From Terriglobia bacterium (lineage in GTDB: Bacteria > Acidobacteriota > Terriglobia > 20CM-2-55-15): 40,000 nt of DNA. The stretch's first letter is position 1. Every line of letters starts with the position of its first letter. A model generated the notes under the pieces. That model was not told the DNA's origin. It searched no databases and worked only from the letters and a program-made list of their open reading frames with translations. Both the position numbers and the translations under genes were made by a program. Positions 11,288 through 29,819 of this stretch are shown here, in pieces. The stretch is taken from contig CAUVWY020000009.1 of NCBI GenBank assembly GCA_963555775.3, positions 940,598 to 980,597 on the forward strand. Direction: 5' to 3'.

Positions 11288-11316
11288 GTCAAATATTCTC
11301 AAATTACTGTGATAAT
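11288..11316 (+). promoter_or_regulatory. Candidate extended -10 promoter for the modification operon
   Basis: TGTGATAAT at 11308-11316 has the form TGn + GATAAT. A weak -35-like GTCAAA lies 17 nt upstream. The site is in the AT-rich junction 48 nt before the first gene. Motif only. Confidence 0.25.
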
Positions 11317-11363
11317 CCCAGAACTTTAATTTAAGATAACTGCTGAATTTGTTCCTATGATCT

Positions 11364-12332
11364 GTGCACAGTTATGAGTGGATTGGGGACATCATAGTGC
11401 CGCTATTAATCATTAACTGTACGAACCGAAAACGCGTCAAAGCCAGCGCTGATCTTGACGCCAAGACTTTAAGTCCAGGGTCTCCGTACGAGGTGGCTCA
11501 AGAATGGCGAACCCGCGTATCTCAAACGGTCGGACGACATTGTGCCAACTATTTGTATTGCGGTCGTAGCTTCTCGGAAAGCGTTGTTGCCAGTAAGCGC
11601 CTGAATGCTGATCTCTGGATCGTGTCTGCGGGGATGGGATTAATTTCGGCTGACGACATGATCCCCGCTTACAACCTTTCTGTGTCCAACAAGATGTGCT
11701 CTCCAGGTGCACATATGAGCGGTTCCTGGGACCCCACACTTTGGTGGGAAGATGCCAATAAGATATGGTCACCGACGCGATCAATCAGCAAGTTGATTTC
11801 CGATAACTCGACGAGTCTTGCAATAGTTGGTTTATCGGGCCCTTACCTCGATATGGTTCACCACGATTTGCAGCAAATAACCCCGACCGAACGTGACAGG
11901 GTCCGCTTAATCGTGCATCCCGCCAATCGAAACGCAGTACCTGCGCTCGACCGCAACATCATGCCCTACGATGAAAGGCTTGATGGGCCTGACAGTTCGT
12001 TTCGTGGCACACGGAATGACTTTGTCGCCCGTGCCGCAAATCATTTCTGCTCCCTGTTGGTCAACAACTGTGACCGTTCCGTCAACTATCACCGAGATCT
12101 TGTGGCGCGAAGCTTGAGCACGCTTCAGCACACACAACGTATTCGAAGAGAACAACGAAATGACACCGAAATTGTCCAGTTAATCATTCGCAACTGGGCC
12201 GATGCGCACGGTCGATCGGGCCGTATGCTTAGAATTCTCAGGGACAAAGAGGCCGTCTCATGCGAACAGAACCGATTCAGGCGACTGTTCCATACAGCCG
12301 CAAACGAAATCACGATTCAGGAACAACAATGA
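11364..12332 (+). CDS. Unknown protein, first gene of the 7-deazaguanine module (DUF6884-like N-terminal pattern; possible DpdC-position protein)
   Basis: It is translationally coupled (ATGA) to the next gene. The N-terminal pattern LLIINCTNRK...ANYLYCGRSF...LWIVSAGMGLISADDMIPAYNLS resembles small conserved domains of the C-x-x-x-K / LY.G..F / SA..GL / P.Y type. The start is uncertain: GTG 11364 or GTG 11395. Confidence 0.55.
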   Translation: MHSYEWIGDIIVPLLIINCTNRKRVKASADLDAKTLSPGSPYEVAQEWRTRVSQTVGRHCANYLYCGRSFSESVVASKRLNADLWIVSAGMGLISADDMIPAYNLSVSNKMCSPGAHMSGSWDPTLWWEDANKIWSPTRSISKLISDNSTSLAIVGLSGPYLDMVHHDLQQITPTERDRVRLIVHPANRNAVPALDRNIMPYDERLDGPDSSFRGTRNDFVARAANHFCSLLVNNCDRSVNYHRDLVARSLSTLQHTQRIRREQRNDTEIVQLIIRNWADAHGRSGRMLRILRDKEAVSCEQNRFRRLFHTAANEITIQEQQ

Positions 12333-12725
12333 CGCAAGAAACACTGACCATCCGCGCTCTGAAAACAAGTCAAGGTGACGGCGCAGATGTCTATTCCTTT
12401 TTTGCGCCTGGGCGTGACATTGTGCGGATCGCCGATATTTCCCGCCTGGAACGCGACGAGGATGAAGACTTAAGGGGATTTCAGCGCAAAGACATCAAGA
12501 ACCACATCAAAAACATCGTCGAATATCTCAATCAAGGGAACGTCCTTTTTCCGAATGCGATCATCTTGGCATTCACACGAGAGATTCAGTTCAAACAATC
12601 GCGCGGGCCGAACCAGAGGAATCTGACTGATGTGGCGTCCATGGGAACATTAAGCATCCCAATCCGAGAAGAGGGCGACAGGGCCGCCTGGGTGGTCGAT
12701 GGTCAGCAACGGTCGCTTGCTCTAG

Positions 12726-14579
12726 ACCCTGAATAAGCGCGATTGAGGAAGTATCGATAGTGAAAAAGTAGCGGAAGTACCCGAAATGTCCCCGTCCCGT
12801 GCGAAAAAGAATTTGCAGAATCCTGACGGAAAAGGAGGCATTTCGGATGAACGATTATACGCGCAAGAACATGAGGAATCGCAAGCGGCGAATCGAGCGT
12901 CGGCTTGGGGACCGGCATTGGAGGGAACAGTCGGCGCCGATGTTGTCGGCGAGTAACATGCACTATGAGATGGGCAAGCGGACGCGGGGGACGGCGGTGG
13001 GCGGTCTTGGGGCGATGCATCGGGTGGCGCGGCGGACGGGTCTGATCGAGGCCATCGACGCGCGGGTGGATGTGCTGAAGCGGCATCTGCCGTATCACGA
13101 GTCGGATCACGTGTTGAACATCGCCTACAACGCGTTGACGGGAGGGACGTGTCTGGAAGACATCGAGTTGCGGCGCAACGACGAAGCATACCTGGATGCG
13201 CTGGGGGCGCAGCGGATACCGGACCCGACCACGGCGGGCGACTTTTGCCGGAGATTCGAGCCCGGCGACGTGGAGAACCTGATGGAGGCGGCGAATGAAG
13301 TGCGGCTGAATGTGTGGCGGCAGCAACCGGCCGGTTTTTTCGACGAGGCGGTGTTGGACGCGGATGGGACCCTGGCGCCGACCAGCGGGGAATGCAAGGA
13401 AGGGATGGATATCGCCTACGACGGGACATGGGGCTATCACCCGTTGTTGATTTCACTGGCGAACACCTCCGAGCCGTTATACCTGGTGAACCGGAGCGGC
13501 AACCGGCCCTCGCATGAAGGCGCGGCCCCGCGGTTCGATCAGGCGATCGGGTTGTGCCAGCGCGCCGGGTTCCATCGGATCCTGCTGCGCGGGGACACCG
13601 ACTTCAGCCAGACCCGGCATCTGGATGGATGGGACGGCCAGGGCGTGGACTTCATCTTCGGTATCGACGCGAGGGCGAACCTGGTGGCGCGGGCCGATGC
13701 GCTGGAGCCGGACTGCTGGGCAGTTCTGGAGCGTGAGGCCAGATACGAGGTGGCCACCCAGCCCCGCCAGCGTCCCGACAAGGTCAAGGAACGGATCGTT
13801 CGGGAACGCGGTTTCAAGAACGTTCGCTTGCGGGGCGAAGACGTGGCCGAGTTCGCCTACCGGCCCGGCGCCTGTAAGCGGGACTACCGCGTCGTGGTGG
13901 TGCGGAAGAATCTGTCGGAGGCCAAAGGGGAGTGGGTGTTGTTCGACAAGATCCGGTACTTCTTCTACATCACGAACCGTGCCGGTCCCGCCGACCGGAT
14001 CGTGAAGCGCGCGAATCAACGGTGCAATCAGGAGAATCTCATCGAGCAACTCAAGAACGGCGTCCGGGCCTTGAAAATGCCGGTGGGCGACCGGACCGGC
14101 AACTGGGCCTACATGGTGATGGCGTCGCTGGCCTGGACCCTGAAGGCGTGGTTTGCGTTGCTGCTTCCCGAAACCGGACGCTGGGCCCCGAAGTATCGGG
14201 CCGAGAAGCAGACCGTTCTACGCATGGAGTTCAAGACGTTCCTGAACGCCTTCATCCTCCTGCCGTGCCAACTCGTGCGTACCGGCCGGCGCATCGTCTT
14301 CCGGCTCATGGCCTGGAACCCGTGGCTGTCCGTCTTGTTCCGTGCCGTGGATGTGTTGCGTCGTCCCCTGCGATGCTGACCCGATCATGGATCTGAGCCC
14401 GGGCGGTCGAGGTCCCGGTTGCTGTCAACCCTTCAAACAGACACGGCGAGGCCCCCACTGGAACAGACGCAACTCGAACCGGAGGCCGGGACAAAACGAT
14501 CCCGGAACGGAAGGTTATGCCTCCAACTTTATGGCTGGGAACCGGCCGTTCGCCATCTGGTTATGCGCTTGTTTTGGGT
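12726..14579 (+). mobile_element. IS1380-family insertion sequence (about 1854 bp)
   Basis: It is flanked by a CTAG direct repeat (12722-12725 and 14580-14583). Imperfect terminal inverted repeats are ACCCTGAATAAGCGC... and ...GCGCTTGTTTTGGGT. It encodes a single transposase. Confidence 0.85.
12847..14379 (+). CDS. IS1380 family transposase
   Basis: ATG 12847 follows AAGGAGG (12832-12838). The sequence ...HLPYHESDHVLNIAYNALTGGTCLEDIELRRNDEAYLDALGAQRIPDPTTAGDFCRRF... matches IS1380-type transposases as I recall them. Confidence 0.9.
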   Translation: MNDYTRKNMRNRKRRIERRLGDRHWREQSAPMLSASNMHYEMGKRTRGTAVGGLGAMHRVARRTGLIEAIDARVDVLKRHLPYHESDHVLNIAYNALTGGTCLEDIELRRNDEAYLDALGAQRIPDPTTAGDFCRRFEPGDVENLMEAANEVRLNVWRQQPAGFFDEAVLDADGTLAPTSGECKEGMDIAYDGTWGYHPLLISLANTSEPLYLVNRSGNRPSHEGAAPRFDQAIGLCQRAGFHRILLRGDTDFSQTRHLDGWDGQGVDFIFGIDARANLVARADALEPDCWAVLEREARYEVATQPRQRPDKVKERIVRERGFKNVRLRGEDVAEFAYRPGACKRDYRVVVVRKNLSEAKGEWVLFDKIRYFFYITNRAGPADRIVKRANQRCNQENLIEQLKNGVRALKMPVGDRTGNWAYMVMASLAWTLKAWFALLLPETGRWAPKYRAEKQTVLRMEFKTFLNAFILLPCQLVRTGRRIVFRLMAWNPWLSVLFRAVDVLRRPLRC

Positions 14580-15310
14580 CTAGAGCAATCAGATAATTCC
14601 GGCATCCCGGTTCCTGTAGTCGGTTTCATTTGTGAGGATCTGCAAACACAGCGCGAGCAGTTCATCCTGGTAAACAAAGCGAGACCCTTGCCTCGCCGCC
14701 TTATCAACGAACTTCTTCCCGAAACCGGTGTCCTCCTTCCGCGCGATTTAGCTGTCAGAAAGATACCAAGCAAACTATGCCACCTTTTGAACCGCGACCC
14801 GCAGTCGCCGTTTTATCGATTGATTAAGCGAATGTCTGACGCAAACTAATCCGCTGCCGTTATCGTCGATTCTGCGATCATAGACATGATCAAACACAGC
14901 ATTAACAATCCACTCGGAGCGCTGTCCCCTTACAAAGGGACACGGAACGGCAACGCTGAAATCGATTCGATGTACCGCGTTACATGCGGTTTCTGGTCGG
15001 CAATGAGGGACGTTTTTGCGGACGCGTGGGGTAAAGACCCGCGCGAAAGCCGGTTGATGCACTCGGCTGGGATTCAAGCCGCAGGCGTACTGATGGACCG
15101 TATCACTGCGCGACTAGGATCTTATGACGAGAGCACGTCTAAGAAATTCAAGCGCGATTTAGAGTGCATGGCACCGTATTGCCATTGGACTAGTGGTACT
15201 TGGGAGGGCCTTGGTCTCGAATGGAACGAGATTCAGAGTATCCCGCGACACATTCGCGGATTGGCCGACGAACTGGTACGGATCTATAACCAGACTACTC
15301 GCTCTTGACT

Positions 15311-16585
15311 ATGGAGTTTATCTACGCAGACAGCCTGGACTACGTCGATCCCAATTTTGATTTTGAAACGGATTCAAGTAGCCCTGGACGCGAGCGCTAC
15401 TGGGACGACAAATTCGCTCATGAAATCCTGGAGTGTGCGCCGTATGACGGGATTTTAGTCTCGCGTGGGGTAGTTGGAGATCACCGATTCCCAGGAAAGT
15501 ATTCTGAGGCACAGGCACATAGGTTCAGACGTGTCGGTGCACGCGCATTTCTTCGCTTCAATGGCGAGAAAAACCGCGATAAGAAGATCTTCGGTGATTG
15601 CGGTGCGTTTTCGTACCACAAAATGGACAGCCCGCCGTATTCGCCAGAAGAGATCATCGAATTTTACGAAGATGGGAAGTTCACGCATGGTTGCTCGATA
15701 GACCACATTATCTTCGAGTTCAATCGCGACAACTCGGCTACTCCGTCAGAGAACGCCCGGAAGCGGTCGAGGATAACAATCGACTTTGCCGAAAGGTTTA
15801 TCGACGTGTGGCGGCAAAGGGGTTCTCGATTCGTGCCTATCGGTATCGTTCAGGGTTGGTCGCCCAAGAGCATGGGCGATGCTGCGGAATCCTTGGTGAA
15901 ACTTGGTTATGACTATCTCGCACTCGGAGGTATGGTCCCACTGAATGCCCGATCCATCCATCTTTGTCTTGCAGAAGTGCGTGCCAGAATTCCGAGCAAG
16001 GTCCGAATCCATCTTCTCGGTTTTGCCAAAGCGGAACAAATCACCGAATTCACAAACTACGGGATCACCAGTTTTGACTCGACCTCACCCTTACTCCGAG
16101 CCTTCAAAGATTCCAACCGCAATTACTATGTCAATAGTGGCGCTGGCGGCCTGGAATATTTTTACGCAATCCGCGTTCCACAGGCTCTTGAGAATGTTGG
16201 GGTTAAGCGCCTAGTAAGAGAAGGACTCGTCAAGCAAGATGAACTCGTTCGATTGGAGGCGTCCGCTCTTCGGACACTGCGCAGCTTCGACCGCGGTGAA
16301 AGCGATCTAGACGATGCGATCAATGCCTTGTTCCATTATCAGAGGAAACTTTCGACCGCGAAGGATGACAGCGCGAAAGTCGAACGAAGTATTGCGCAAT
16401 TGATGGAGCGCTATCGGAAATCTCTAGCAGCAGCACCATGGAAAAATTGCCCATGCCGGATCTGCAGGACTTCTGGAATTGAAGTGATCATCTTCAGAGC
16501 AAGCAACCGGAACAAGCGCCGCGGGATCCATAATCTGCAGTCGTTCTATAAGTTAGTGACCGAATTGGAGCGACCAGAAAAATGA
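15311..16585 (+). CDS. dpdA: DpdA-like DNA-guanine transglycosylase (tRNA-guanine transglycosylase superfamily)
   Basis: TGT-like elements are present: FGDCGAFSY, LALGGMVP, GITSFDSTSP (equivalent to the catalytic GxDxFD region) and a C-terminal zinc site CPCRIC...H. The context includes queC/D/E and DGQHR genes. An alternative TTG start at 15305 overlaps the upstream stop. Confidence 0.8.
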   Translation: MEFIYADSLDYVDPNFDFETDSSSPGRERYWDDKFAHEILECAPYDGILVSRGVVGDHRFPGKYSEAQAHRFRRVGARAFLRFNGEKNRDKKIFGDCGAFSYHKMDSPPYSPEEIIEFYEDGKFTHGCSIDHIIFEFNRDNSATPSENARKRSRITIDFAERFIDVWRQRGSRFVPIGIVQGWSPKSMGDAAESLVKLGYDYLALGGMVPLNARSIHLCLAEVRARIPSKVRIHLLGFAKAEQITEFTNYGITSFDSTSPLLRAFKDSNRNYYVNSGAGGLEYFYAIRVPQALENVGVKRLVREGLVKQDELVRLEASALRTLRSFDRGESDLDDAINALFHYQRKLSTAKDDSAKVERSIAQLMERYRKSLAAAPWKNCPCRICRTSGIEVIIFRASNRNKRRGIHNLQSFYKLVTELERPEK

Positions 16586-17670
16586 CCAAGATATTGCAAT
16601 TTATTGGGGTTATTGCGAACCAATCGAAACAGCACACCGTTGTTTCGTTTCCCGCGCTGGCAAACGAACTGCACAAAATTGCGGACATTCACCGGGCCGG
16701 TCGAAGAGTTAGTGGTGTGCTGGAGGGCTTCCAACGCCCACGGATTGCCAATCACATAAAGGAGATCCGGACTTATCTACTGCAACCGGACGCGATCCTT
16801 CCAAACTCGATTGTCATCGCATTTTCCGACGGGGTCACGGTAGAAAAGGTGGCGCGTCGTATCGCGATTGTCTCGGTTGACTGTGAAAAGGGTCCGCCTG
16901 GCCTCATCGTTGATGGCCAGCAGCGCCTACACGCACTGACGAGTTCGGGCCGTGATGATTTTGAAATTTTTGTGTCAGCATTTATTGCCAATAGTGAAGA
17001 CGAGTTGCGCGCGCAATTCATTCTGATAAACAACACCAGACCGCTGCCGAAATCGCTTATTTACGAGTTATTACCGACGGTGTCTGGCCTGCCTTCCTCG
17101 ATGAAAAGTCGGTCGTTTGCGTCCAAACTAGCCGGTCGATTGAATTTTGAAACAGAGTCGTCGCTCTTTGGGCAAATCTGCATGCATACCAGCCCTGAGG
17201 GGATCATTAAGGACACGTCGATACACAGGGTCATCATGAATTCCGCTAGTGATGGGGCGCTTAGAGAACTCAAACATAGTGAGGATTTCGAAGACCGAGC
17301 ATTCAACCTGATCAGCAATTTCTATCAGGCGGTGCAAAACAGCTTCCCACAAGCGTGGAGAAATCAAACTCCAAGAACCTCACGACTTGTCCACGGTGCT
17401 GGCATCATAGCGATGGGTTACGTTATGGAATACCTCTACGCCCGAGATTCCGCCTGTGAAATAGACGAATTCGAACGCGGCATATCACCCCTGATTGATT
17501 GCACTGCATGGACGGCCGGGAACTGGAACTTTCCAGACGGGGAGTGCCGACCGTGGAACGGTATTCAAAATGTCGGACGGGAGATCCTTAAGCTGACCGA
17601 TTATCTCCTGCGCGTTCTCAGAAACGCACCGGCATCAACGGCCGTTGTGCCCATGCGGGTCTTCAAGTGA
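16582..17670 (+). CDS. DGQHR-domain (DndB/DpdB-like) protein, paralog 2, apparently intact
   Basis: ATGA overlap with dpdA. Motifs: [39 protein letters not shown] and [20 protein letters not shown]. Confidence 0.85.
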
Positions 17671-18380
17671 GTCTTCCATCATCGAATAAGGCCCTGGTGC
17701 TTTTTTCCGGAGGTCAGGATTCCACCACGTGCCTGGCGTGGGCGTTAACCCGGTTCGACGATGTCTACACCATTGGGTTCAATTATGGTCAGCGGCACGC
17801 GGTCGAACTTGAGTGTCGCACCAGGATACTGGAGCAAATTCCGGCCGTTTCCGACTGGGTGGGTTCGATCAAGGGGGACCACTTGGCACGCCTTGATTTC
17901 CTCCCGGCACTCGGAGATTCCGCCTTAACATCGAAACGAAAGATAGAGATAGCGGCATCCGGTTTGCCGGCGACGTTCGTACCCGGGCGCAATATATTCT
18001 TCCTGACTGCCGCCGCTGCGCTTGCCTACCGGTTGGAGATTCGACACATTGTTGGGGGAATGTGCGAAACCGATTTTTCTGGTTATCCAGACTGTCGGGA
18101 TGACGCAATTAAGAGTCTTCAAGTAGCACTTAACATCGGGATGGAAAGCAGGTTCGTGCTTGAGACGCCCTTGATGTGGATAGACAAAGCCGAAACTTGG
18201 GAACTTGCCCACCAGATTGGTGGCGAACCACTGATCGACATCATTCGAAGAGATACGCACACGTGTTACTTAGGCGATCGGACAATAGAACATGAGTGGG
18301 GATTCGGATGCGCAACCTGTCCGGCATGCGACCTACGCCGCAATGGTTATTTAGCTTTTCGCAAAAGAACCTTAACCTGA
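17667..18380 (+). CDS. queC: 7-cyano-7-deazaguanine (preQ0) synthase QueC
   Basis: GTGA overlap with the upstream gene. It has the PP-loop [12 protein letters not shown] and the C-terminal zinc cluster CYLG...[11 protein letters not shown]. Confidence 0.9.
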
Positions 18381-18393
18381 GAGGTGATGAGCG

Positions 18394-19482
18394 TTGGATG
18401 CATCGTATTACCAAATAGCCTGCAGCCGATTCGAGGGCGCGCGCGCCGTGCGGATACTGCCCCAAACTCATCCATCTTACCGTTTGCACGGCCACAGCTT
18501 CGTCGCCAAGACCAGAAAGAAGTTGAAGGACAGCGACATCGCGGGGGGGAGCGCAATTCTGGACGAAGAGCAGTTGTTCTTGGAAAAACTCACAAGCCAG
18601 CTTAATTACCGCTACATCAATGAAATCATAGATATACCAACTGATGAGAACATCGCAAGATGGCTTTTTAAAGGAATAGATTCGGACAGGCTCGATCTCG
18701 CTGGCATTCAAAGCACCCCGAGCCAAGGAGTCGATCTCGATTCATCCGGGAACGCTCATCTTTGGCGAAAGTTCCGCTTCGAAGCCGCTCACCAGTTACC
18801 CAACGTTCGGCCAGAGCACAAGTGTGGCCGTATGCATGGTCATGGATTCGAAGTCATTATCCACGCTATCCAAGATATTTCGAGCCAGCAGATGGGCATG
18901 GACTACGACCTGATAGCAACCCACTGGGAATCTGTAAGAAAGCAGATCTCAAACAAATGCTTGAACGATATCCCTGGCCTCGAAAATCCTACCAGTGAGA
19001 CCATCGCACGTTGGATATGGGGGCAACTAAAGGACGAACTGCCAGATTTGTCGTGGGTCACCGTTTTCGAGACAGCCATGGCCGGATGTCATTTTGACGG
19101 TTCGAGCTACAACGTCTGGAAAGAATTTCACTTCGAATCCGCAGTTTCCCAGATGACACACGGAAACAGGTCCCTTTCCTTATTTGGGCATAGTTATAAG
19201 ATGCGCTTGCATTGTTCTGGTCCTTTCGATGAACACCTTGGATGGGCCATTGACTATGGAGATATCAAGGACGCGTTCGGCCCGGTGTACACGATATTAG
19301 ATCACCACAATCTGGATGAGATTGCAGGCTTGAATGCAGGATCTCCATTGGAGTTCCTGCAGTGGATTTGGACGAAGACATCATCGGAACTACCGATTCT
19401 GGTGCGGATCGATCTCTTCGAGACACCCGAGCGTGGTGTTGTCTGCACAGGGGGTTTGGATTCCCCGGCACTGCCAACGTAG
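18394..19482 (+). CDS. queD: Tri-modular 6-carboxytetrahydropterin synthase (QueD/PTPS) homolog
   Basis: TTG start lies 9 nt after GAGG. The product has three modules of about 115-120 aa. Module 2 (aa ~122-236) has the full RFEAAHQLP...HKCGRMHGHGF signature. Module 1 has THPSYRLHGHSF and module 3 has HFESA...LSLFGHSY; both lack the Cys. Each module ends with the ...IARWIW...V.V.ET-type strand pattern. Confidence 0.8.
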   Translation: MDASYYQIACSRFEGARAVRILPQTHPSYRLHGHSFVAKTRKKLKDSDIAGGSAILDEEQLFLEKLTSQLNYRYINEIIDIPTDENIARWLFKGIDSDRLDLAGIQSTPSQGVDLDSSGNAHLWRKFRFEAAHQLPNVRPEHKCGRMHGHGFEVIIHAIQDISSQQMGMDYDLIATHWESVRKQISNKCLNDIPGLENPTSETIARWIWGQLKDELPDLSWVTVFETAMAGCHFDGSSYNVWKEFHFESAVSQMTHGNRSLSLFGHSYKMRLHCSGPFDEHLGWAIDYGDIKDAFGPVYTILDHHNLDEIAGLNAGSPLEFLQWIWTKTSSELPILVRIDLFETPERGVVCTGGLDSPALPT

Positions 19483-19494
19483 CTGTGGCTCCAC

Positions 19495-20136
19495 ATGACA
19501 TATTCGGTAAAGGAAATATTCCCGACGTTACAGGGTGAAGGTGCGCAGTCAGGACGGGCAGCCGTGTTTTTAAGGTTTAGCGGTTGCAATCTATGGAGTG
19601 GTTTGGAGCGTGATCGTTCGACCGCAATCTGCAGGTTCTGTGATACGGATTTTGTGGGTGCTGATGGCCCCGGGGGCGGCAATTTTCCAACTGCAGAGTC
19701 CCTCGCGGTCCGGATCGAAAACTGCTGGGTAAGCCAGGCTGGGAAAGAAGGACCCCGATTTGTCGTATTTACAGGCGGAGAACCTGCCCTGCAGGTTGAT
19801 GACGGCTTGATTGCAAACCTTCATGCGCTTGAATTCGAAATTGCAATAGAGACGAATGGCACTTTATCCATACCAGATGCCGTTGATTGGGTGTGTGTCA
19901 GTCCAAAAGCCGGTGCGCAGTTGAAGATTGAGACGGGCAATGAACTAAAAGTTGTGTTCCCACAAAGAGGGATGAATATGGAGGCCCTGTCGGCTCTCGA
20001 TTTCCAACACTATTATGTTCAGCCAATGGATGGTCCCAGGATCGAACAAAACACCAAAGCGGCCATCGCTTATTGTCGTAAGCACCCGCAATGGCGCCTT
20101 TCAGTTCAGTCGCACAAATATCTAGGTATTCCCTGA
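19495..20136 (+). CDS. queE: 7-carboxy-7-deazaguanine synthase QueE (radical SAM)
   Basis: EIFPTLQGEGAQSGRAAVFLRFSGCNLWSGLERDRSTAICRFCDTDF gives a CX14CX2C cluster-binding motif. The length of 213 aa fits the short QueE type. Confidence 0.9.
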   Translation: MTYSVKEIFPTLQGEGAQSGRAAVFLRFSGCNLWSGLERDRSTAICRFCDTDFVGADGPGGGNFPTAESLAVRIENCWVSQAGKEGPRFVVFTGGEPALQVDDGLIANLHALEFEIAIETNGTLSIPDAVDWVCVSPKAGAQLKIETGNELKVVFPQRGMNMEALSALDFQHYYVQPMDGPRIEQNTKAAIAYCRKHPQWRLSVQSHKYLGIP

Positions 20137-20253
20137 TCGTCGGCTATGTGTTGGCGATCACGAGAAAGTGAAGTTTTTGGAACACGCGCCGGCCGATCAC
20201 TCAGTCGATTGCGTATTCCGGCGAAAGCCACCAGTGATTCCGAAGTGAAAGTG

Positions 20254-20334: not shown

Positions 20335-20383
20335 CACGTGGGGCGGGCAGCGTCGGCGTACAGGCACACAGCGAGTGCCTCGT

Positions 20384-22630
20384 TCAGGTCGGCACGACCT
20401 GCAAGCGTTCACGCAACGCTGCGACCAAACTGGCGCTGCCTTGGCCTCTAGCGTACAGAGTGCACGCACCGCTTGGCCTGTGAGACTCGATGAATGCCGT
20501 CGCACTGTGTTTTGCTGCCGCCGTTGCGATGACGAACACGTCGGATGTGGCGGACGCACCTCTTAGAGCCGGCGAGCCGCCCACGTGATCATGGAATATG
20601 TTGACCCGGACTCCAGGGCACAGTTCCCGCACGACTAGCGCGGCGCGGCGAAGCGCGGACTCTTGTAATGAGTACAGAGCCACTTTCTTTCCATCCAAGG
20701 TGTCCCACTCCGACGGGAGTTGAGGTCTATCCTGTACCGGTTCTGGCTGGGTAACAGCTTCGGCCACACCGAGTTCTTCAGCCAGGTGTTGCAGGAGAAC
20801 GATGTCTGCCCTGTCGACACGTCGGTACCAGCGTCGAAAGAGCCCCGCAATCGCAACGACGAACCCCTGTCTCTCAGAGGGCGCGGGACAGGCTGCGTTC
20901 ACAACGATCTCGACCGCCTCGAGTGCGATCGTGGCAACGGACGGTGTCTCGACGGCGTTGATCGCGGATGACAGTTGCCCAAGAAGTTCGCGGTAGTCAG
21001 CAATTGTAACGCCCAACTGGAGCCTCACATCGACGACCTTCAAGAGCACGCTGACCTGAGGCAGCGACACCTGGTCGTCGACCGCGATTACGAAGAAGAG
21101 GCTCTCGAATACCACCTTCAGCCTCGGATCTAGTCCACTGCGCAAGCAAAACGTTAGAAAATAGGGCAGTGCGTCCCTAAGCGCCTCCTGGCCCCAACTC
21201 GCTCGATCGCGGAGGAGGAGATCCGCCACCTTTTGAACCGCCAACGGATCTCTGGCGAACTTGTCGACACTCCACTCTCGAGAGGCTATCTCCGCGACTG
21301 ACACAGCGGATGACCACGATTCTGGCAGCGTCAGACGTGTTAGCCACATCGCCCATGTCGTCGGTAGTTCCACGACGTCAGAATCTGTCACGGCAGCAGC
21401 ACTGAGTTGTTTTAAAGAACCGACAATACGCCCGAGAACCGCGTTGTGCGCCAGCCGTGATCGCCCGTCCACTGACAGACCTTCGACGGATTCCAGTGCG
21501 ACCTGAGCGGCTGACAGCGTTTCCATATCTCGCGCGCAACGAATCAAGAGTGCAGTTCGCTCAAAAGATGGTGGGAGGACGGCAACAAGGCTATAGGCGC
21601 GATCAATGTCAGCCTCGCCAAAGGCCGCACGCGCCTCCGCGAGAGGGTCACCTTCGGGCAGACCGACCTGCGCCTCCTCGAGGGCGGCGAGCATAGTCAG
21701 ATATTCACGATGCGAAGAACCCGGTGGGTATCGCTCAAGGACCGCTTCCGCAGCGACTAGCCTTGCTGGTGCCGACGCAAGGGCAGCCAGCAGAAAACTG
21801 ACGTCCACTTCATAACCTGAGAGACCCGCGCGCGATCGATACAGATCGCGGAAGCGCGGGAGAATGTCCGAGCGGAAGTAGCCGATGGCGTCCGCAGCAT
21901 CACGTCCAACTTCGAATTCCTGGAGGCACGAGCGGTACACGGCGCCGATCAAGGCCTCAGTTACCCGCCGCGGACGTGGCATTGCGATCAAAGCATCAAG
22001 TTCCGGAAGGGCCAGGATCGCGTCCCCGTAGCCGCCGACCGCGAGACATCGTACCTCAAGGAATAGAAGATTTGCCGCGCCAAGGTGGCCTGACGAACGC
22101 AATTCATCGATCAATCCGCGCGCAGCGGTTTCGTCGCGCATAAGCAACGCGTACTCGAAATCACGAAGAACTCTGCCGACTGCGCGTAGTCGACGTGCGT
22201 GCCTTGCGGGACGTTCGCCACGTAGCCGGATCAGGAGACGGAGGCGCTCCCGAGCAATATCAAGGATGGCGTGTTCCGAAACGTCAAGTCGGAAGGCATT
22301 GCTTCCGCATCGGGCCAGTACTGATGCCTCGACGCTGTCATTTTGATCGAGACGCTCAAACTGGTTACTTGAATCGCAGTAGCTCGGCCCAAGAAACGCC
22401 CGCACCTCGTCGCGGGCGTTTCGCGCAGCACGCGGAGACGAACAGAGTATGTACCACTGCACTTGTCCACTGTCCCGCACGCGAGGGAGCACGAGAACCT
22501 CTGGATTACGCCGCAGGTCATCGAGGAACGGATCGAGCCTGTCCTGCACGTCGCGTGGAAGTGAACCTGCCTGAATCGCATCCCAGCGCAGACGATTGCC
22601 TGGGCCGAAGAACGTCTCTTCGAAGGTCAC
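20384..22630 (-). CDS. Unknown 748-aa protein, last gene of the helicase/PLD operon (C-terminal DUF2325-like region)
   Basis: 4-nt overlap with the PLD gene. The C-terminus KKVALYSLQE...VNIFHDHVGG...DVFVIATAAAKHSATAFI resembles the DUF2325-type pattern. The rest is helical and Arg/Leu/Ala-rich with no motif I can name. Confidence 0.65.
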   Translation of the reverse strand: MTFEETFFGPGNRLRWDAIQAGSLPRDVQDRLDPFLDDLRRNPEVLVLPRVRDSGQVQWYILCSSPRAARNARDEVRAFLGPSYCDSSNQFERLDQNDSVEASVLARCGSNAFRLDVSEHAILDIARERLRLLIRLRGERPARHARRLRAVGRVLRDFEYALLMRDETAARGLIDELRSSGHLGAANLLFLEVRCLAVGGYGDAILALPELDALIAMPRPRRVTEALIGAVYRSCLQEFEVGRDAADAIGYFRSDILPRFRDLYRSRAGLSGYEVDVSFLLAALASAPARLVAAEAVLERYPPGSSHREYLTMLAALEEAQVGLPEGDPLAEARAAFGEADIDRAYSLVAVLPPSFERTALLIRCARDMETLSAAQVALESVEGLSVDGRSRLAHNAVLGRIVGSLKQLSAAAVTDSDVVELPTTWAMWLTRLTLPESWSSAVSVAEIASREWSVDKFARDPLAVQKVADLLLRDRASWGQEALRDALPYFLTFCLRSGLDPRLKVVFESLFFVIAVDDQVSLPQVSVLLKVVDVRLQLGVTIADYRELLGQLSSAINAVETPSVATIALEAVEIVVNAACPAPSERQGFVVAIAGLFRRWYRRVDRADIVLLQHLAEELGVAEAVTQPEPVQDRPQLPSEWDTLDGKKVALYSLQESALRRAALVVRELCPGVRVNIFHDHVGGSPALRGASATSDVFVIATAAAKHSATAFIESHRPSGACTLYARGQGSASLVAALRERLQVVPT

Positions 22631-23145
22631 GCCACACCCCCATATTCCTTCCGAAAGGCGAGTCGCAGTTGCTCGACGCTACCGCGCTCATTCTGGAAGA
22701 CAAGCATTTCCGTGAGGCGCTCCAGTCCGTTGAATGTCAGGTTCATTGAACCGAGCAGCGAGTACCGGTCACCGACAATACCCTTGGCATGCAGTTCCGA
22801 ACGCTCATGGAAGATCACTGCTTCCGGTCTACCCACGGCCTGGAGTCCATCCAGGACCTGGCGATTACCCGCATCTGCTCGCGCCGCGATCACGACAGTC
22901 GTCCCTCGGTCGACAAGTTCTCGAAGCACGCGGCTTAGACGCACCTCCGCGCGAGGAAAGTCCGGGCAGAGAGACAGAAACGACCCGGTGCTGTTGTCGA
23001 GGACGGGGATGTCGCGCAGCCACGGCGACACGATCCAAAGGCAGCGGCTCGGCATCAAGAGTTCTGACGCGAAGATGAGTTGCAGCAATTCCTGAGCGGA
23101 CTTTCTTGCGTCAACCGCGGTTTGCAGGAACTGGCGCGTTGTCAC
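22627..23145 (-). CDS. Single-HKD phospholipase D-family nuclease (DpdK-like / Nuc-like)
   Basis: HAKGIVGDRYSLLGSMNLTFNG contains H-x-K-x4-D-x6-GSxN. The product is 172 aa and has 4-nt overlaps with both neighbouring genes. Confidence 0.8.
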   Translation of the reverse strand: MTTRQFLQTAVDARKSAQELLQLIFASELLMPSRCLWIVSPWLRDIPVLDNSTGSFLSLCPDFPRAEVRLSRVLRELVDRGTTVVIAARADAGNRQVLDGLQAVGRPEAVIFHERSELHAKGIVGDRYSLLGSMNLTFNGLERLTEMLVFQNERGSVEQLRLAFRKEYGGVA

Positions 23146-24181
23146 TGAAAGGCCTCTGGCAATTCAACTGCGGCCTTGAAGCGGCCGCCGTCACGGCGAA
23201 TCCCGGTCACGCGTGCGTGAACAAGAATGGCCTCTGAGTCAACCGGTTCTGCGCCGATTCGCAGCAATGCGTCCGCGAGTTGTCCGCCGTTGTCGGCAGC
23301 GGCGACAAGTTCGGCCGATCCATCTTCAAGTAGGACGCGCGCGAGTTCGTCGAACCAGTTGGCATTGGAAACAGCGATTTGCCGTACCGACCACGAGACT
23401 GCAGCTATTACGAGCAGTCGATCAGACTCTGGGAGTCGTTCAAATGGGTTCCATGCACGTAGCGATTCTGCTCGGATCTGTGCTCCACGAGGCCAGAACA
23501 TGCTGTATAGAACGCCGAAGCGCCACGCACGGCGTGCACTCTCGGAATCACCCGCCGGCGTCACGCCGAGCGCCCGCTCCAAAGTTGCATCCGAACTCTT
23601 GACTAGAGCAAAGACCCGAGCGTCAATTTCGACATTGAGTGCGACTTCCGCAGCCTGCCATTCGCGTGCTAGCGCCGCAGCAAAGCAGTCCATGTTTCCG
23701 CTCGTTCCAGATCCCAGCAAGCGTGTATTGACCGACACCATGAGCGTTGTGGTCGGCTGGATGTCACGGCGGGCGAGTTCACTCCGCAGGGCCGTTTGCG
23801 CACGGAGGCCCTCTCTGTGGGACGTTGCGACACGGACTGCACTGAACGCGTTCACCAAAGAGGAGTGTTCTGGTCTCGCCGAAGACACCATGTCCAGGAT
23901 GCGGGCGAGTTCGTCACCGATGGCCTCCAAATCAGAACCACTGAGCACGTCGTCTAATAGTCGGCAATATCTTCTCGGGTCCTCCACATACCGCGCAAAA
24001 AACTCCTCGACAAATCCGCCGCCACCGATCGTCGTCTCCGTGATCCACAACTCGTCCACGTGTTCACCCGCCTCTGCGTCTTGAGCATTCTCGCGATTGA
24101 CGTACGCGTTCAGATCCAATGCAAGAGCCCCTGGGTCCATTCGAGGACACAGATTGTGAGCTCCTTCGACGAGCGCAGATC

Positions 24182-24311
24182 CTAGCAGCCTGTCGGACTT
24201 TCGGCGTAAGTCCTTTGTTTTCAACAACGGCCCTTTTTAGCCCGAAACGGTAAACACAGTCATATGAATGACTTAGGTTTTTGATTCGGTGTTAGTCCGA
24301 CAGGCTGCTAG
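24182..24311. mobile_element. MITE-like element, copy 2, inserted inside the large helicase gene
   Basis: Same 130-bp sequence as 7205-7334, with CTAG at both ends. It supplies the premature stop (LAACRTNTESKT*) of ORF 24273-25685 and the false start MLKTKDLRRKSDRL of ORF 23142-24227. Confidence 0.85.
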
Positions 24312-25699
24312 CGTCGACTTGAATCGGGCTCGTAACCATACCTCCCAATTTTCATCAATCGGTGACCAGAGGACGTGCGCAGCCTGATGGAGTGCGTCTC
24401 TCGTTGCCGGCAAATCGAGCAAATCTGCGAGCTCCTGTAAGCGGCGCGGCAGATCTTGGTCATCCGTGTCGTTCAGGTCGGATCCGTTCCATTGAAGGAT
24501 CGTTTCCAGCACTTCTTTAATCGTCGTCCTGGATGTTTTTCGATTTACTGCGCCTTCAGCCGACTCCAGGTCAAGCTCTGTTCGCAAGGCTTCGGCCGTG
24601 ACCGTTGACAGATAGGTCTGCGACAGCCAATCTCGCTGAAACGTGTTTGATATACCATCCAAGGCCGGCGAGTCGCGAATGAGGTCTCGAAAGCGTGCCG
24701 TCCGGAGTCCGCGTACAAGACGACCATCGCCCATGCAGAGTTCGTGCAACCGTTCGGGATAGGCGAACTTGACCTGTATTCCATCGACATCTGCTGCGAA
24801 GCCCACTGCGGCAGGCTGCTCGCCTACCTCGGTGGCGTAGACAAATCGTAACGAATAGACAGTCTGTGGCTGCCGCCCACGGCCGACGGAAGCCGTTGCC
24901 CCCATTGAGAAGCGCCGAAGTTCGACTGGCAAACCCAATTGGTGCGTGTGCACCCACATTGCTAGAAGAACCGACTGCCAGACGGATCCGTGCGGAAGAT
25001 CGATCTCATGACCAACGGCTGTTGGAATGATCTCCGAGCGCCATTCAGGAAAGGAGTTCGACGACTGCTGGACATCAAGTGGCGTTTGGTCGACATCAAT
25101 CGCGAACGGACGAAATACGGGAATCTCGCGTTCCTGTCCATCGGGCTCGACGTAATGGGAGTACCCGAGGTCAAGACGGTCACCCGCCGGACAAAAGTCG
25201 TCGACAGAAACGCGATCTCCGTCCCCCGGGGCGATCCAATGGCGTTGACCGCCGGTGGACACGCCAAAGCGCCGAGAAACACGGCCCGGAGAAAACTCAC
25301 GTAGCGCCTGCGCGATCGGCATCAATTCGGTCCGCGGTTCGCCCCGGCCGTATGCTGGGAGGCGAACGGCGACATCCGGCACCTGTAAATCGCTGAAGAG
25401 CGTCCGAGGAAGGAACTCCGGTAGAGGCGCTCTTGGAGTGTGCGGCTCAAGTGCAGGGCTGGAGGCCCGTCTCCAGCCTCGCTCGAGTCGGCGGAGCAAA
25501 GTGGGGACCGCTTCCGTCATGAGAGCGCGAGGAGGTTCCCACATGACGGCACTGACCTCATCCGGATCGATAGCGAGCGAGCGAGCGATAAATCCGGCGA
25601 ACTCATCCCGAACAGAGCTTTCCTCAAGCAGCGTCGTCAAATACTGGACGTATAGCGCTTGACGCTCTCCCACATCGCGTGACACTTGGCCGTTCTTAA

Positions 25700-27643
25700 T
25701 CTGAAGTTCCCCCGCCAGTATGGACGTATCTAGCTGAGAAATAAGAACAAATCAGGATATGGAAATGTCGGCTACTGGGAACGTCTTGATCAGTTCGGCA
25801 GCGCGCCGTTGCAGAGGGGTGGGTTCGGTGAGGCGTTCGAGAGGCGGGCCGTCGGGATCGGTTTGGAGTCGGCAGGCGCACCGGCATTGGGTCGCCAACT
25901 CGGCGAGCAGGGTGGACATGCTGTGCAAGGGCAAACCGTCATCGGTCCGGCGGCGGTTCTTCTTGGCCTTCGCCGTGTCGGACGCCTGGGCGGGCAAGAC
26001 GGGATCGCGCGTGGCGCGTTGCAGGTCGAGTTCTTCGTCGTGGAACAGCAACGGCGCGAGCGCCTGGCGCAGGTGCCATTCGACGTAGTAGGCGAGCATG
26101 CACAGGAAGATATGGGCGCGCACACGCGACTCGGTGCGATGGTATATGGGCCGTATCCGCAAGTCCACGGTCTTCAGGGACCGAAAGGCGCGTTCGACGC
26201 GGGCGAGGTTCTTGTAGCCGCGGACCACTGCGGCGGCGTCCAGTCGCGTGGCCGGTTCGCTGGTGCGGACGACGTAGTACCCGTCCAGGGCCGCTTCGCG
26301 TTCAATGGCGGCGGTCTTGCGCTGGTAGGTGAAGCGGTGGTCTTCAATGACGGTTTCGAAGTGCTTGGCCATCTTGAAGCGGTTCTGCGCGCGCCCGACT
26401 TTCTCGGCAATGGCGGTCGCGGTCAGCGGCGTCCGGGTCCGCCGCGCCACCTGGCGCTGGATCTTGCCGAACGCCTCTTCGGTGGCCGTGAGCAGCGCGT
26501 CGCGTTTGCGCCGGCGGCGCTCGGCCAGTACCGGGTTGTGGCAGACCACGAGCCGCTCGTCCGGGTACGCCGCGACGGTGATTTCGGCCAGGTTCCGCGC
26601 ATCGAACAACGACGTTTGCACCGCGCCCTGCTCGAACAACCGGCGAATGTCGGTATGCCGCAACGCCGAAATCCAGCCTAACCCCGGGTGCTGTTTGAGA
26701 TGGTCGATCTGCGTCTGCGTCAGCATGCCGCGATCGCCCACCAGCACCACCCGTTCGAGACCGAAGCGATCGCGCAGTTTCGCCACCTGGTCCGGAACCG
26801 TGTTCGGATCGGCCGTGTTGCCCTCATAGGCCTGTATGGCCACCGGCCGCCCCGCCGCATCGGTCATCAACCCATAGACCACGATGGGCCGTCCCCGCTT
26901 GCCGTCGCGGCTGTAACCGAACTGGGCCAGGGCACAGGCGCGCCCTTCGTAATAGCTGCTGCTGACGTCATAGAGCACGTGCCCGCTGTCGGTCAGATGC
27001 CGCGCGGCCAGCCGCCGTTCAATCCGCTCCTGACGCTCCAGCACCCAGTCCATGGCGTCGTAGAGATCGTCCTCATCGGCGTTGTCGAGCGCCAATTCCT
27101 GAGCCAGCGTGGTGGTGTGCCACAGCCGCGTGGCGGCGAGCTTGGACGTGGGCGCCAGGAGGCGCTGGACCAGCATCGCCAGCACCAGGTCGCGCGGCCG
27201 GGACCGTTTGCGGTCGAGCACGGCCGGCAGGTCGAGACGGCGCAGCAGGTGCAGGATCAGTGCGACATGGCCGTGCGGCAGCGTACGGTCGATGGTGAAG
27301 GCCTCCTCGGGGTGGACCAGGGGTTGGTCCTTGAGCAGTTGGCGGAGGCGGGCGACTTTCGGCGCGGGCCAATGGGAGAGATTGGCGATGGTGCGTTTGT
27401 GGACGCGATGGCCTTCGCGCCAGCCTTCCCGCAGCAGGACGGCGGGTGGCGAGTTGCGGTTGGGAACAGTTTCAACGTACATGGGAACATAATGTACGTG
27501 AAATAGCTGATTAATGCAACACCACAATGAGCAAAAAGATTCTCATACATGGGAACATCTGGCGCTTTTCTGCCGAGGCATAATGCTCCCTAATTCAAGA
27601 CGTTAGGGTGCGTTTTCGACCAAAATGCCGGGGGAACTTCAGC
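25700..27643 (-). mobile_element. IS1634-family (IS4 superfamily) insertion sequence, about 1.94 kb
   Basis: Imperfect 18-bp inverted repeats are TCTGAAGTTCCCCCGCCA (25700-25717) and TGCCGGGGGAACTTCAGC (27626-27643). It is flanked by a TTAA (or TTAATCT) direct repeat at 25696 and 27644. It contains one transposase gene. Confidence 0.85.
25752..27482 (-). CDS. IS1634 family transposase
   Basis: MYVETVPNRNSPPAVLLREGWREGHRVHKRTIANLSHWP... is the characteristic N-terminus of IS1634-type transposases. I prefer the ATG at 27482 over the listed start at 27527. Confidence 0.9.
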   Translation of the reverse strand: MYVETVPNRNSPPAVLLREGWREGHRVHKRTIANLSHWPAPKVARLRQLLKDQPLVHPEEAFTIDRTLPHGHVALILHLLRRLDLPAVLDRKRSRPRDLVLAMLVQRLLAPTSKLAATRLWHTTTLAQELALDNADEDDLYDAMDWVLERQERIERRLAARHLTDSGHVLYDVSSSYYEGRACALAQFGYSRDGKRGRPIVVYGLMTDAAGRPVAIQAYEGNTADPNTVPDQVAKLRDRFGLERVVLVGDRGMLTQTQIDHLKQHPGLGWISALRHTDIRRLFEQGAVQTSLFDARNLAEITVAAYPDERLVVCHNPVLAERRRRKRDALLTATEEAFGKIQRQVARRTRTPLTATAIAEKVGRAQNRFKMAKHFETVIEDHRFTYQRKTAAIEREAALDGYYVVRTSEPATRLDAAAVVRGYKNLARVERAFRSLKTVDLRIRPIYHRTESRVRAHIFLCMLAYYVEWHLRQALAPLLFHDEELDLQRATRDPVLPAQASDTAKAKKNRRRTDDGLPLHSMSTLLAELATQCRCACRLQTDPDGPPLERLTEPTPLQRRAAELIKTFPVADISIS

Positions 27644-29819
27644 TTAATCTCCGCGGCAGGCTGTGAGAAATCGACCCAAGGATCCGGTGAATAGCTCACC
27701 GGTAACCGGCGCGCCAGCCAATCGCAGAGCACATATGTTGCTTGCATGCGAAGGACGGCCCTGTTCTTTAGCGGCAAGTGACGGGGCGGTAGATTTGGCG
27801 AGAACAACTGATCATAGCCTTGGTAGGCGCTTCGGTCGCGGCCGTAGTCGGATAGAGTGACCACGGTCCACGGCCTCATTTCTTGGCGGCGACCCGCGCG
27901 ACCCTTTCGTTGGAGGAACGCCGCGGCACTATGTGGCGCTTTATGTTGAAGCACGGCACCCACTTCAGGGTCATCGAACCCAACCTCGAGAGCCGCCGTG
28001 GCCACAACAATATCCGCATCCGCATCCACGCCGGTATCTTGTGAGCTTGTGCGTCCGACCCGCACACGACTTCTAGGCGCTAGTACATGCCCGATTTCCT
28101 CGACAAGAGCCCAGTTCTGTCCGCATTCGAGTCGCTCCCGGGCGTTCGGTAGCGTAGTCCCTCGAAGATTCGCCAGCGACCCGCCCACGCGAACCGGGTT
28201 CGGTCGACGGCCAAACCAATCCCACCCCTCGGCATCAAGGAGATTGTGATAAAGCCGGTTAATGACATCCAGATTGTCCGTGAACGTAAAGACGCGGCTG
28301 CCAGAGTAGTCGTCGTGTCGCGATCCCAGAATTCTTCGCAAGAGCATCAGCGATTGAATCGTCGTTGAAAGTAGACTCGTTCCCGAAGATGGATCGCCTC
28401 GTAGCGCAAGCATGTAGTCGGCGCCGTGCGCCTCGAACTCGTTGACCTCTGGCGCGACTTCTCCCACGTCTCCAGGGCCTAACCCTGTCAGATCCCCAAA
28501 GAATCGCGGCGCATCCGCAAGCGTGGCTGACAGGCCGACGAAATGCGGTCGTGCACCAGACGCGCGTCTCCAACGTCGCATTAAGAGAGCTACGTGAGCG
28601 CCATGCACACCTTCGTAGGCGTGAACTTCATCTATGAGTACAAAGTCCGGACGTCGCTCTGGCCTCACCCCGATGCCAAACAGTGGTGCGAATTGTCGCG
28701 ACGACAATCGCTGGTTCAGCATTTCGGTGGAGGTGAAGAGGATATCCGGGGGTTCAGCGAGCATCCGTTGCCGCGTGAGGCGGATCTCATCTGGTTCCAC
28801 CTGGTCACCGCAACGGGTATCAGTGCAGAGCAACCGTTCAAGGCCGATCTGGACGTCACCCTCCATCCATGCCATGTTCGCACCGCAACTCGGACACCGA
28901 ACAAATGGGCACTCATAAGCCGTCTGCCCTCCGAGCGACACGCGCCGCCATGCAGTACCGCGGCTTGGCGTCATGACGTTGCGGGAAGCGTGTGGAACAT
29001 CGCCGTAGAGTGCACCGATGACCAACCGCCGCCGCCCGCGGTCGACTAGTGCCGGAGTCGCCCGCCTTGCGTTCGCGAGAGCCTCGCGAAGTTGATCTTT
29101 TAGGAGTTCGTTTCGGGGATAGAGCGCGAGGCACTTTGTCCAATACGCTGCGGATAGCCGTTCTGCGATCGCAGCGTAGGCCGGAAGATAGAACGCGAGC
29201 GTCTTGCCGCTTCCTGTTCCCGCGGAGATCACCGTTCCAAGAGACCGGTCACTGCCCACCGCACGAAGAATTCGCTCTGTCGCGCGAGCTTGAAAGCGGG
29301 CCAGCGGCCGCTCTATGGCTGCGCCACCCTGTACGAGAGCATTGATGACGCTTTCCTGCAGCGCCGAGACATGAGTCTGTTGTCGCAGATCCTGCAAGAG
29401 GGTGGTTGGTGCGAGGTCCCGCCGTGGGTACAGTCGTGGCCGAACGAAAAACCGATAGTCGGCAACAAGATTCGGTGCGGTCCGCCAGGCAGCGTTCTTA
29501 GGGTCTGGAAATATTTGCTTCAGGCGCGCAAATAGCCGCACGGCTTCGGCCATGCGTGTTCGGTAACGCTGGGTGTCTGGCACTCTCCACAAAAGTTTGA
29601 GGTCGAGCAACGTCTCAATGAGACTCCAACCTGAATCGTGAACGCTTTCAATGCCCTTGCTCGCAAGCGCGGACAGATATTCATCCGCAAGTTGCTCTAT
29701 TTCAGTTTCTGAGAAAAAGCCGTCTATGAGCCCCCAGGAGAGAACGCCTGCCTCAGAGCGTTCAAGCTGGCCGAGGAATTCCAGGGCGTGTGCATCGTCA
29801 GCCATCGCGTGTCGCATTC

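Follow-up and report, generated by a model that had tools for sequence, protein, structure and literature searches.

The 40,000-nucleotide stretch of DNA analysed here (the window; contig CAUVWY020000009.1, assembly GCA_963555775.3) carries a complete Dpd island, dpdA-K, in the genome of a bacterium of the Terriglobia (Acidobacteriota). The island is a decaying member of the known Dpd system, and of a subtype with two DpdB proteins that is already annotated in databases, and does not represent a new system. The whole is very probably explained as a Dpd modification operon of this two-DpdB subtype that is being dismantled by mobile elements, with the two DpdB paralogs, hereafter B1 and B2, most likely having acted jointly.

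The Dpd restriction-modification (R-M) system dpdA-K was reportedly described by Thiaville in 2016 from Salmonella enterica serovar Montevideo. In the Salmonella system, DpdA swaps guanine in DNA for preQ0, a reaction for which DpdB, a ParB-fold ATPase that forms homodimers and bears a DGQQR motif, must hydrolyse ATP; DpdC converts dPreQ0 (2'-deoxy-preQ0) to dADG (2'-deoxy-7-amido-7-deazaguanosine), and unmodified DNA is restricted by DpdD-K (PMC10164549). Scoring of the open reading frames (ORFs) of the window with Pfam, NCBIfam/TIGR and PADLOC models places DpdA, B2, D, F, G, H and K above the respective model cut-offs, and the coordinates and scores of all features are collected in Table 1.

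The modification genes form a run of co-oriented ORFs on the forward strand between 11364 and 20136, namely dpdC, dpdB1, dpdA, dpdB2, queC, queD and queE. Four junctions consist of overlapping start and stop codons (ATGA at 12329-12332, TTGA at 15305-15308, ATGA at 16582-16585 and GTGA at 17667-17670), at exactly the positions given by an earlier interpretation of the letters (the sequence-only reading). The short gaps it reported before queD and queE measure 13 and 12 nt; queD starts with TTG at 18394, preceded by GAGGTGA, and queE with ATG at 19495. An alternative start for DpdA is the ATG at 15311. The view of a modification operon centred on DpdA, its genes coupled in translation, is supported. 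The further step of the sequence-only reading, from these overlaps to a single translational unit, fails in this genome, because an insertion sequence (IS) splits dpdB1 and an in-frame stop codon follows it.

The dpdB1 gene is a pseudogene, split by the IS and additionally closed by the stop codon. Its 5' and 3' fragments are collinear with the intact 373-aa genes of two Terriglobia metagenome-assembled genome (MAG) loci, L001 and L002, which came from a genome scan with DpdA and whose DpdA proteins are 95% and 85% identical, respectively, to that of the window. A C-terminal ORF of dpdB1 (14886-15308) covers DpdB profile positions 223-352 with 143 bits. The interrupting element bears the marks of the IS1380 family: a DDE transposase, co-oriented with the operon; terminal inverted repeats (ACCC..AAGCGC); a duplicated CTAG target (12722-12725 and 14580-14583); and an empty site in relatives, both L001 and L002 carrying the uninterrupted sequence GCTCTAGAGC. 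Since the target site TCTAGA is palindromic, a duplication of 4-6 bp and an element of 1852-1854 bp are possible. The G+C content of the element is 0.65 against 0.52 for the operon, and its transposase is only ~26% identical to plasmid-borne relatives, so that no named IS can be assigned.

Excision in silico of the element together with one CTAG restores a frame of 373 codons, and its product shares 99% identity with the L001 protein. At codon 221 this reconstructed frame has TAA, against GAA in L001 and CAT in L002. Neither lesion is an assembly artefact, because an independent assembly, ENA contig L098 (99.9% identical to the window), contains the same IS and the same TAA in dpdB1. The inactivation is recent, since dpdB1 differs from its L001 counterpart by 21 synonymous and only 2 nonsynonymous changes. 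It is therefore very hard to credit an intact operon that is translated as a single unit and yields two active DpdB proteins: the start-stop overlaps are real and both paralog sequences carry the conserved motifs, yet a 1854-bp element and a nonsense codon that L001 and L002 lack are found in two assemblies. The view that dpdA sits between two DGQHR paralogs thus holds in so far as two DpdB-type sequences flank it, although the upstream one is no longer an intact gene.

The restriction half is also damaged. The sequence-only reading confined the operon to 11364-20136, which encloses the modification genes, and did not set it within the full island, whose dpdD-K genes take up the remainder of the window. 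These genes adjoin the modification operon and lie on the minus strand, beginning at 20384 and running up to the end of the window, where dpdE is cut off; the match to dpdI is weak. The gene of a restriction helicase, dpdJ, is made up of three ORF pieces, the N-terminal one scoring 980 bits on NF041067 (cut-off 800) and the other two lower; the interruption is also supported by tblastn with intact DpdJ proteins, by inverted repeats and by stop codons. The in-frame stops in the C-terminal part of dpdJ were considered as point nonsense mutations and rejected as such, since they stem from a miniature inverted-repeat transposable element (MITE) of 122 bp that, with its 4-bp duplication, adds 126 bp in frame. 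The dpdF gene looks damaged and is probably disrupted. Its second, overlapping ORF matches the DpdF C-terminus weakly (E 0.0011), and a partial MITE copy at 36527-36564 has a direct repeat of 20 bp, CTAGTTCCGTGATGCCATCA, on its flanks; tblastn of the window gave no match to the DpdF C-terminus, and the reading frames on the two sides of the MITE remnant do not add up. Decay in this genome thus extends over dpdB1 (IS1380 element and stop), dpdJ (IS1634 element and MITE), dpdF in all appearance, and abiEii, which is frameshifted near 10217-10232 where the L001 gene is intact (310 aa).

The MITE has the terminal repeats CAGCCTGTCGGAC...GTCCGACAGGCTG and duplicates CTAG. Two full copies, at 7209-7330 and 24186-24307, are identical at 122/122 positions; the first is intergenic and absent from L001, and the second breaks dpdJ. 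In L098 a further copy (~1947-2068) lies at a CTAG beside the IS1380 element inside dpdB1, and L001 and L002 contain no copy. The tetranucleotide CTAG (12722-12725, 7205-7208 and 24182-24185), duplicated by both the IS1380-family element and the unrelated MITE, is an insertion hotspot that they share in this island.

The modification operon is 97% identical to L001 DNA through the end of queE; beyond it no DNA similarity is found (window 20153-40000 versus L001 14848-21278 and L002 14833-21275). The dpdD/dpdK/dpdJ set of L001 differs from that of the window, with DpdK 38% identical and DpdJ 48% identical in its N-terminal and 26% in its C-terminal part, and in L002 the genes after queE are dpdE and dpdF, in the same orientation. 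It seems that the restriction half is exchanged independently of the modification half.

In the pairwise alignment that the sequence-only reading proposed, B2 shows 33% identity to reconstructed B1 (E 5e-49), and the two share the GFQR, DGQQR and FIL(V/I)N..RPLP motifs. Their model scores mark them as true paralogs of the DpdB type. On the DpdB model NF041060 (cut-off 300), B1 scores 461 bits, as intact ortholog or reconstruction, B2 368 bits and the single enterobacterial DpdB 477 bits; no solved structure matches DpdB by sequence. Both proteins also match Pfam DndB (PF14072), and further, more distant DGQHR genes occur near some related clusters (a third, very distant DGQHR protein within L007, 15600-16874, and, in L009 at its 3' edge, a gene annotated as DGQHR, 15024-15272). 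One of the pair might accordingly be a DndB-type regulator of another system, such as phosphorothioation, that neighbours dpdA by chance. We regard this as extremely improbable. B1 and B2 reach just 42-44 bits on the dnd-associated DGQHR model TIGR04172, whose cut-off is 450, and both lie above the DpdB equivalog cut-off; they flank dpdA in the same fixed arrangement in different phyla; the ORFs scanned across the window include no dndCDE; and the outlying L007 protein is 17-21% identical to either B1 or B2. A DndB identity for B1 or B2 was consequently rejected on model scores and gene context, and the pair does not fall into the unrelated subfamilies that the sequence-only reading had named as its possible undoing.

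The pairing recurs in other genomes, so that the refuting check set by the sequence-only reading comes out in its favour. The order dpdC-B1-dpdA-B2 is found in L001 and L002, on a metagenome contig where it adjoins traG/traH, in Rhodomicrobium vannielii and Ensifer adhaerens, and on Agrobacterium vitis and Methylobacterium plasmids, for which both genes are labelled DpdB in GenBank. From a metagenome scan with a DpdA alignment we took the 80 best-scoring loci, all of 48-58% DpdA identity, and in 70 of the 70 with enough flanking sequence dpdA has a B1-type ORF upstream and a B2-type ORF downstream. The ORFs are full length in 63 of 64 cases for B1 and 65 of 65 for B2. Upstream copies are 53-62% and downstream copies 50-59% identical among themselves, B1 and B2 are always 28-35% identical to each other, and a neighbour-joining (NJ) tree resolves them into two clean clades, with B1 as the sister group of the single enterobacterial DpdB (one sequence, no bootstrap). 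GFQR and DGQ[QH]R are kept in 120/120 members of the B1 family and in 120/120 of the B2 family, and an extra conserved loop (residues ~88-116) is specific to B1. Between L001 and L002, the ratio of nonsynonymous to synonymous substitution rates (dN/dS) is 0.127 for B1 and 0.133 for B2.

On the strength of these sequence comparisons, B1 and B2 are two old, co-inherited orthologous groups under purifying selection, and the window's operon belongs to the subtype in which they hold fixed sides of dpdA, its own B1 surviving only as a pseudogene. The sequence-only reading had presented two DpdBs as a departure from the literature. By the same comparisons the pair is a conserved design of this DpdA clade and not unusual; it is annotated in GenBank, and the GATOR-GC survey (Nucleic Acids Research 2025) already counts extra copies: of all dpd genes, dpdB is the one that most often occurs in additional copies inside the islands, n = 801 (PMC12235509). 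That survey gives a count only, without the two orthologous groups, their flanking positions or a functional proposal, and our literature search found no paper that divides B1 from B2 or offers a role for them. The Salmonella-like cluster of an Enterobacter cloacae plasmid (L008) has one DpdB, downstream of dpdA; this protein is about as distant from B1 as from B2, and the accompanying DpdA is 38% identical to that of the window.

DpdA is intact, matches the Salmonella DpdA structure 7UI4 (E 1.7e-89) and keeps the catalytic residues D98, F102, D133, L238, D258 and F267, of which D98, D258 and F267 correspond in the alignment to D95, D256 and F265 of the Salmonella enzyme (general acid/base Asp, nucleophile Asp and essential Phe); the position of Salmonella His181 is occupied by Gln183. 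No dpdC had been recognised in the sequence-only reading unless it was the first ORF, and the PADLOC match of near full length shows that the first ORF is indeed DpdC. Its matches to Pfam DUF6884 and YaaA are weak and below threshold, and DpdC has been described as DUF328-like (PMC5699537). Translation of dpdC probably starts at 11397 rather than 11364, as the ortholog in L001 has 311 aa and matches 11397-12329 with 95% identity.

From the Salmonella system and the enzyme families present, the following route can be proposed for the intact operon. Dihydroneopterin triphosphate (H2NTP) would be supplied by a host GTP cyclohydrolase and converted to preQ0 by QueD, QueE and QueC. DpdA would then replace guanine in DNA by preQ0, powered by ATP hydrolysis of the ParB-fold DpdB, after which DpdC would hydrate dPreQ0 to dADG and DpdD-K would restrict unmodified DNA. 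To this scheme we add the hypothesis that B1 and B2 act as a heterodimer in place of the Salmonella DpdB homodimer, an idea that arises because the DpdB required by Salmonella DpdA is a homodimeric ParB-fold ATPase (PMC10164549). Such a replacement throughout the two-DpdB clade is plausible, if somewhat short of an even chance. An obligate heterodimer of two ancient DpdB paralogs, shared by Acidobacteriota, Alpha- and Betaproteobacteria and many metagenome lineages and dividing roles such as DNA-site recognition and DpdA activation, is a tentative proposal that we would place near one chance among three. DpdB resembles other dimerising NTPases of the ParB/DndB superfamily (the ParB CTPase clamp; SspE) in its ParB fold (PMC10164549). 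Precedent for a catalytic transglycosylase with paired subunits exists in the eukaryotic tRNA-guanine transglycosylase heterodimer QTRT1/QTRT2 (PMC10164549); unlike a B2 or B1, QTRT2 is a paralog of the transglycosylase itself and not of an ATPase, and binding between B1 and B2 is hypothetical here.

Restriction is probably dead. Modification would be impaired or lost unless B2 alone serves DpdA and transcription reads through the IS. It is conceivable that B1 and B2 are redundant or separable, so that B2 by itself drives DpdA, modification persists by read-through or from an outward IS promoter, and restriction alone (dpdJ) has gone. B2 is indeed intact, above the DpdB cut-off and in possession of GFQR and DGQQR; the characterised (PMC10164549) and enterobacterial (L008) systems run on a single DpdB; the downstream genes show purifying-selection ratios; and the transposase is co-oriented with the operon. 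Yet both paralogs are retained in every one of the 70 related loci, essentially always at full length and each with a dN/dS near 0.13, and the broken B1 is the copy nearer to the canonical single DpdB, by score on NF041060 and by its place in the NJ tree. We consider B2 acting alone unlikely, though a serious contender. That two paralogs, both with the motifs, are so strictly kept together speaks for roles that are not redundant, and the joint action of B1 and B2 in an operon now under dismantling remains the reading that we prefer.

Several points weigh against it. Two separate homodimers with different tasks fit the data equally well and form the main alternative to a heterodimer, and loss of modification hinges on whether B2 alone supports DpdA. 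For dpdA, dpdB2 and queC/D/E, dN/dS against L001 is 0.08-0.25, with no relaxed constraint, which fits very recent loss or continued use. The metagenome loci are the best-scoring set and thus cover this DpdA clade only. Promoter and terminator scans of 10900-20500 returned counts at the level of shuffled sequence and are silent on polarity of the IS. In R-M systems generally, loss of the modification arm selects for loss of restriction, and vice versa; the sequence gives no order for the losses in this island.

The preQ0 genes downstream of dpdB2 are all three present, as the sequence-only reading had stated, with the qualification that its queD is not a normal QueD of ~120 aa. The ORF encodes three PTPS domains in 362 aa, with a total of 129 bits on TIGR03367 (cut-off 89), and the full set of active-site residues is obtained only from domains 2 and 3 combined. 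In all of 116 family members, the Zn-binding His triad, the catalytic Cys and the Glu are conserved in domain 2 and the Asp-His pair in domain 3, while no more than two His are left in domain 1. The residue pattern suggests that the protein is a single-chain pseudo-trimer with one composite active site. Relative to E. coli QueD, the homohexameric single-domain T-fold synthase of carboxytetrahydropterin (CPH4), domain 2 retains the same Zn His triad, Cys and Glu; unlike it, the window chain fuses three T-fold modules and splits the catalytic residues among them. Proteins of ~364 aa annotated as 6-carboxytetrahydropterin synthase make up the widespread family to which it belongs. Ordinary chromosomal surroundings free of dpd genes (L015, L017) contain the queC-queD3-queE cassette as well, and the tri-domain form is found in 5 of the 38 two-DpdB metagenome loci that have a QueD match. 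It was considered as a Dpd-specific novelty and rejected, since the family is widespread and occurs in housekeeping contexts too.

The absence of FolE from the module, which the sequence-only reading had noted, extends to the whole window: no FolE or FolE2 match was found among the ORFs scanned across it, and tblastn of the window with E. coli FolE gave none. Such an absence is ordinary for these clusters, because related clusters too carry only queC/D/E and dpd clusters are described as carrying 'one or more' preQ0 genes (PMC5699537). Could the extra T-fold domains of the tri-domain QueD supply the GTP cyclohydrolase I step and make the module self-sufficient from GTP? The T-fold is common to FolE and QueD (PMC5699537), the window has no folE, and two of the three domains are without parts of the QueD active site. 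Nevertheless all three domains match PTPS/QueD models and none a GTP cyclohydrolase family, the cassette recurs in ordinary chromosomal settings, most two-DpdB clusters have a single-domain QueD and likewise no folE, and the residues fall into one composite QueD site, with Zn and Cys in domain 2 and Asp-His in domain 3. This makes a cyclohydrolase function highly improbable.

Table 1. Features of the dpd island, in positions of the window
Feature	Position	Strand	Evidence and remarks
dpdC	11364..12332	+	DUF328/DUF6884-like; PADLOC DpdC PDLC02815, 283 bits, E 6e-85, near full length
dpdB1 pseudogene, 5' fragment	12329..12725	+	Codons 1-132, ends right after DGQQRSLAL; NF041060 DpdB positions 2-124, 165 bits
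IS1380-family insertion sequence, 1854 bp	12726..14579	+	Transposase 12799-14379; NF033539 279 bits, cut-off 180; Pfam DDE_Tnp_1_4
dpdB1 pseudogene, 3' fragment	14584..15308	+	Codons 133-373; in-frame TAA 14847-14849 (codon 221)
dpdA, DNA-guanine transglycosylase, intact	15305..16585	+	NF041059, 533 bits, cut-off 200
dpdB2, second DGQHR/ParB-fold ATPase paralog, intact	16582..17670	+	NF041060, 368 bits, cut-off 300
queC (7-cyano-7-deazaguanine synthase)	17667..18380	+	Pfam QueC 225 bits; TIGR00364 197 bits
queD, three tandem PTPS/T-fold domains, 362 aa	18394..19482	+	Pfam PTPS, 3 stretches; TIGR03367 QueD, 3 stretches
queE (7-carboxy-7-deazaguanine synthase, Cx14CxxC type)	19495..20136	+	TIGR04508, 335 bits, cut-off 240
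dpdD	20384..22630	-	NF041061 516 bits; PADLOC DpdD 498 bits
dpdK (PLD-like)	22627..23145	-	NF041068, 168 bits
dpdJ pseudogene	23142..29817	-	Three ORF pieces, NF041067 DpdJ positions 1-696, 702-1157 and 1145-1482
122-bp MITE in dpdJ	24186-24307		CTAG duplication (CTAG 24182-24185)
IS1634-family element in dpdJ	~25696-27647	-	Transposase 25752-27527; NF033559 342 bits; inverted repeats TTAATCTGAAGTTCCCCCGCC
dpdI (weak match)	29820..30521	-	NF041066 40 bits, below cut-off 150; PADLOC DpdI E 3.5e-6
dpdH	30518..33694	-	NF041065, 641 bits
dpdG	35460..36197	-	NF041064, 181 bits
dpdF, apparently split	36194..38841	-	ORFs 36760-38841 and 36194-36817; NF041063 734 bits, profile positions 19-670 of 813
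dpdE, C-terminal part	38838..39929	-	NF041062 positions 717-1047; remainder beyond the window end

Some neighbouring features deserve mention. Between dpdH and dpdG, two minus-strand ORFs (33921-34373 and 34374-35348) have no Pfam, NCBIfam or PADLOC match; they may be additional genes of the island or encode the C-terminal part of DpdG in diverged form. Just upstream of the dpd operon, 8795-10594 holds an AbiE toxin-antitoxin pair, and 10546-10923 on the minus strand a putative antidote/HTH gene. An Rfam scan of the whole window returned no family, hence no preQ1 riboswitch, and a tRNA scan of the window found no tRNA genes marking an integration site.

Set beside the Salmonella Montevideo system, the island shares all of the families DpdA-DpdK, the conserved catalytic Asp/Asp/Phe of DpdA, a ParB-fold DpdB with DGQQR, a DpdC and the preQ0 precursor. 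It differs from the Salmonella and Enterobacter types, which have one DpdB downstream of dpdA, in its two diverged paralogs flanking dpdA, and from the Salmonella system in bringing its own queC/D/E, in the exchange of His181 for Gln in DpdA, and in the pseudogenes dpdB1 and dpdJ. Closer counterparts are the alphaproteobacterial clusters of Agrobacterium vitis (CP146243.1), Methylobacterium sp. XJLW (NZ_CP017427.1), Rhodomicrobium vannielii and Ensifer adhaerens, which have the same core, dpdC-dpdB-dpdA-dpdB followed by preQ0 genes, with B1 orthologs 53-56% and B2 orthologs about 52% identical to those of the window. In contrast to the window, their preQ0 genes run queE-queD-queC with a single-domain QueD and often a VUT/YhhQ transporter, and both of their DpdB copies are intact. 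In the alphaproteobacterial loci L006 (13129-21119) and L007 (17214-21113), a protein of ~770 aa and an AAA_11/AAA_12 helicase of ~2100 aa replace dpdD-K, and these downstream genes may be an alternative restriction module. The ~770-aa protein of L006 has a weak PD-(D/E)XK match.

The window is a clear case of an R-M island losing both of its halves to mobile elements that target CTAG. The single Dpd system studied biochemically has one DpdB, whereas a whole DpdA clade keeps two, one on each side of dpdA. Given the strict pairing, the purifying selection and the NTPase motifs in both copies, a model with a single DpdB does not fully describe many Dpd systems, and the point worth experiment is why the two-DpdB clade needs two DpdBs. 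If B1 and B2 do form an obligate heterodimer, the genome of the window, a recent natural knock-out of B1, and its otherwise 97%-identical intact relative would provide a ready-made pair for comparison.

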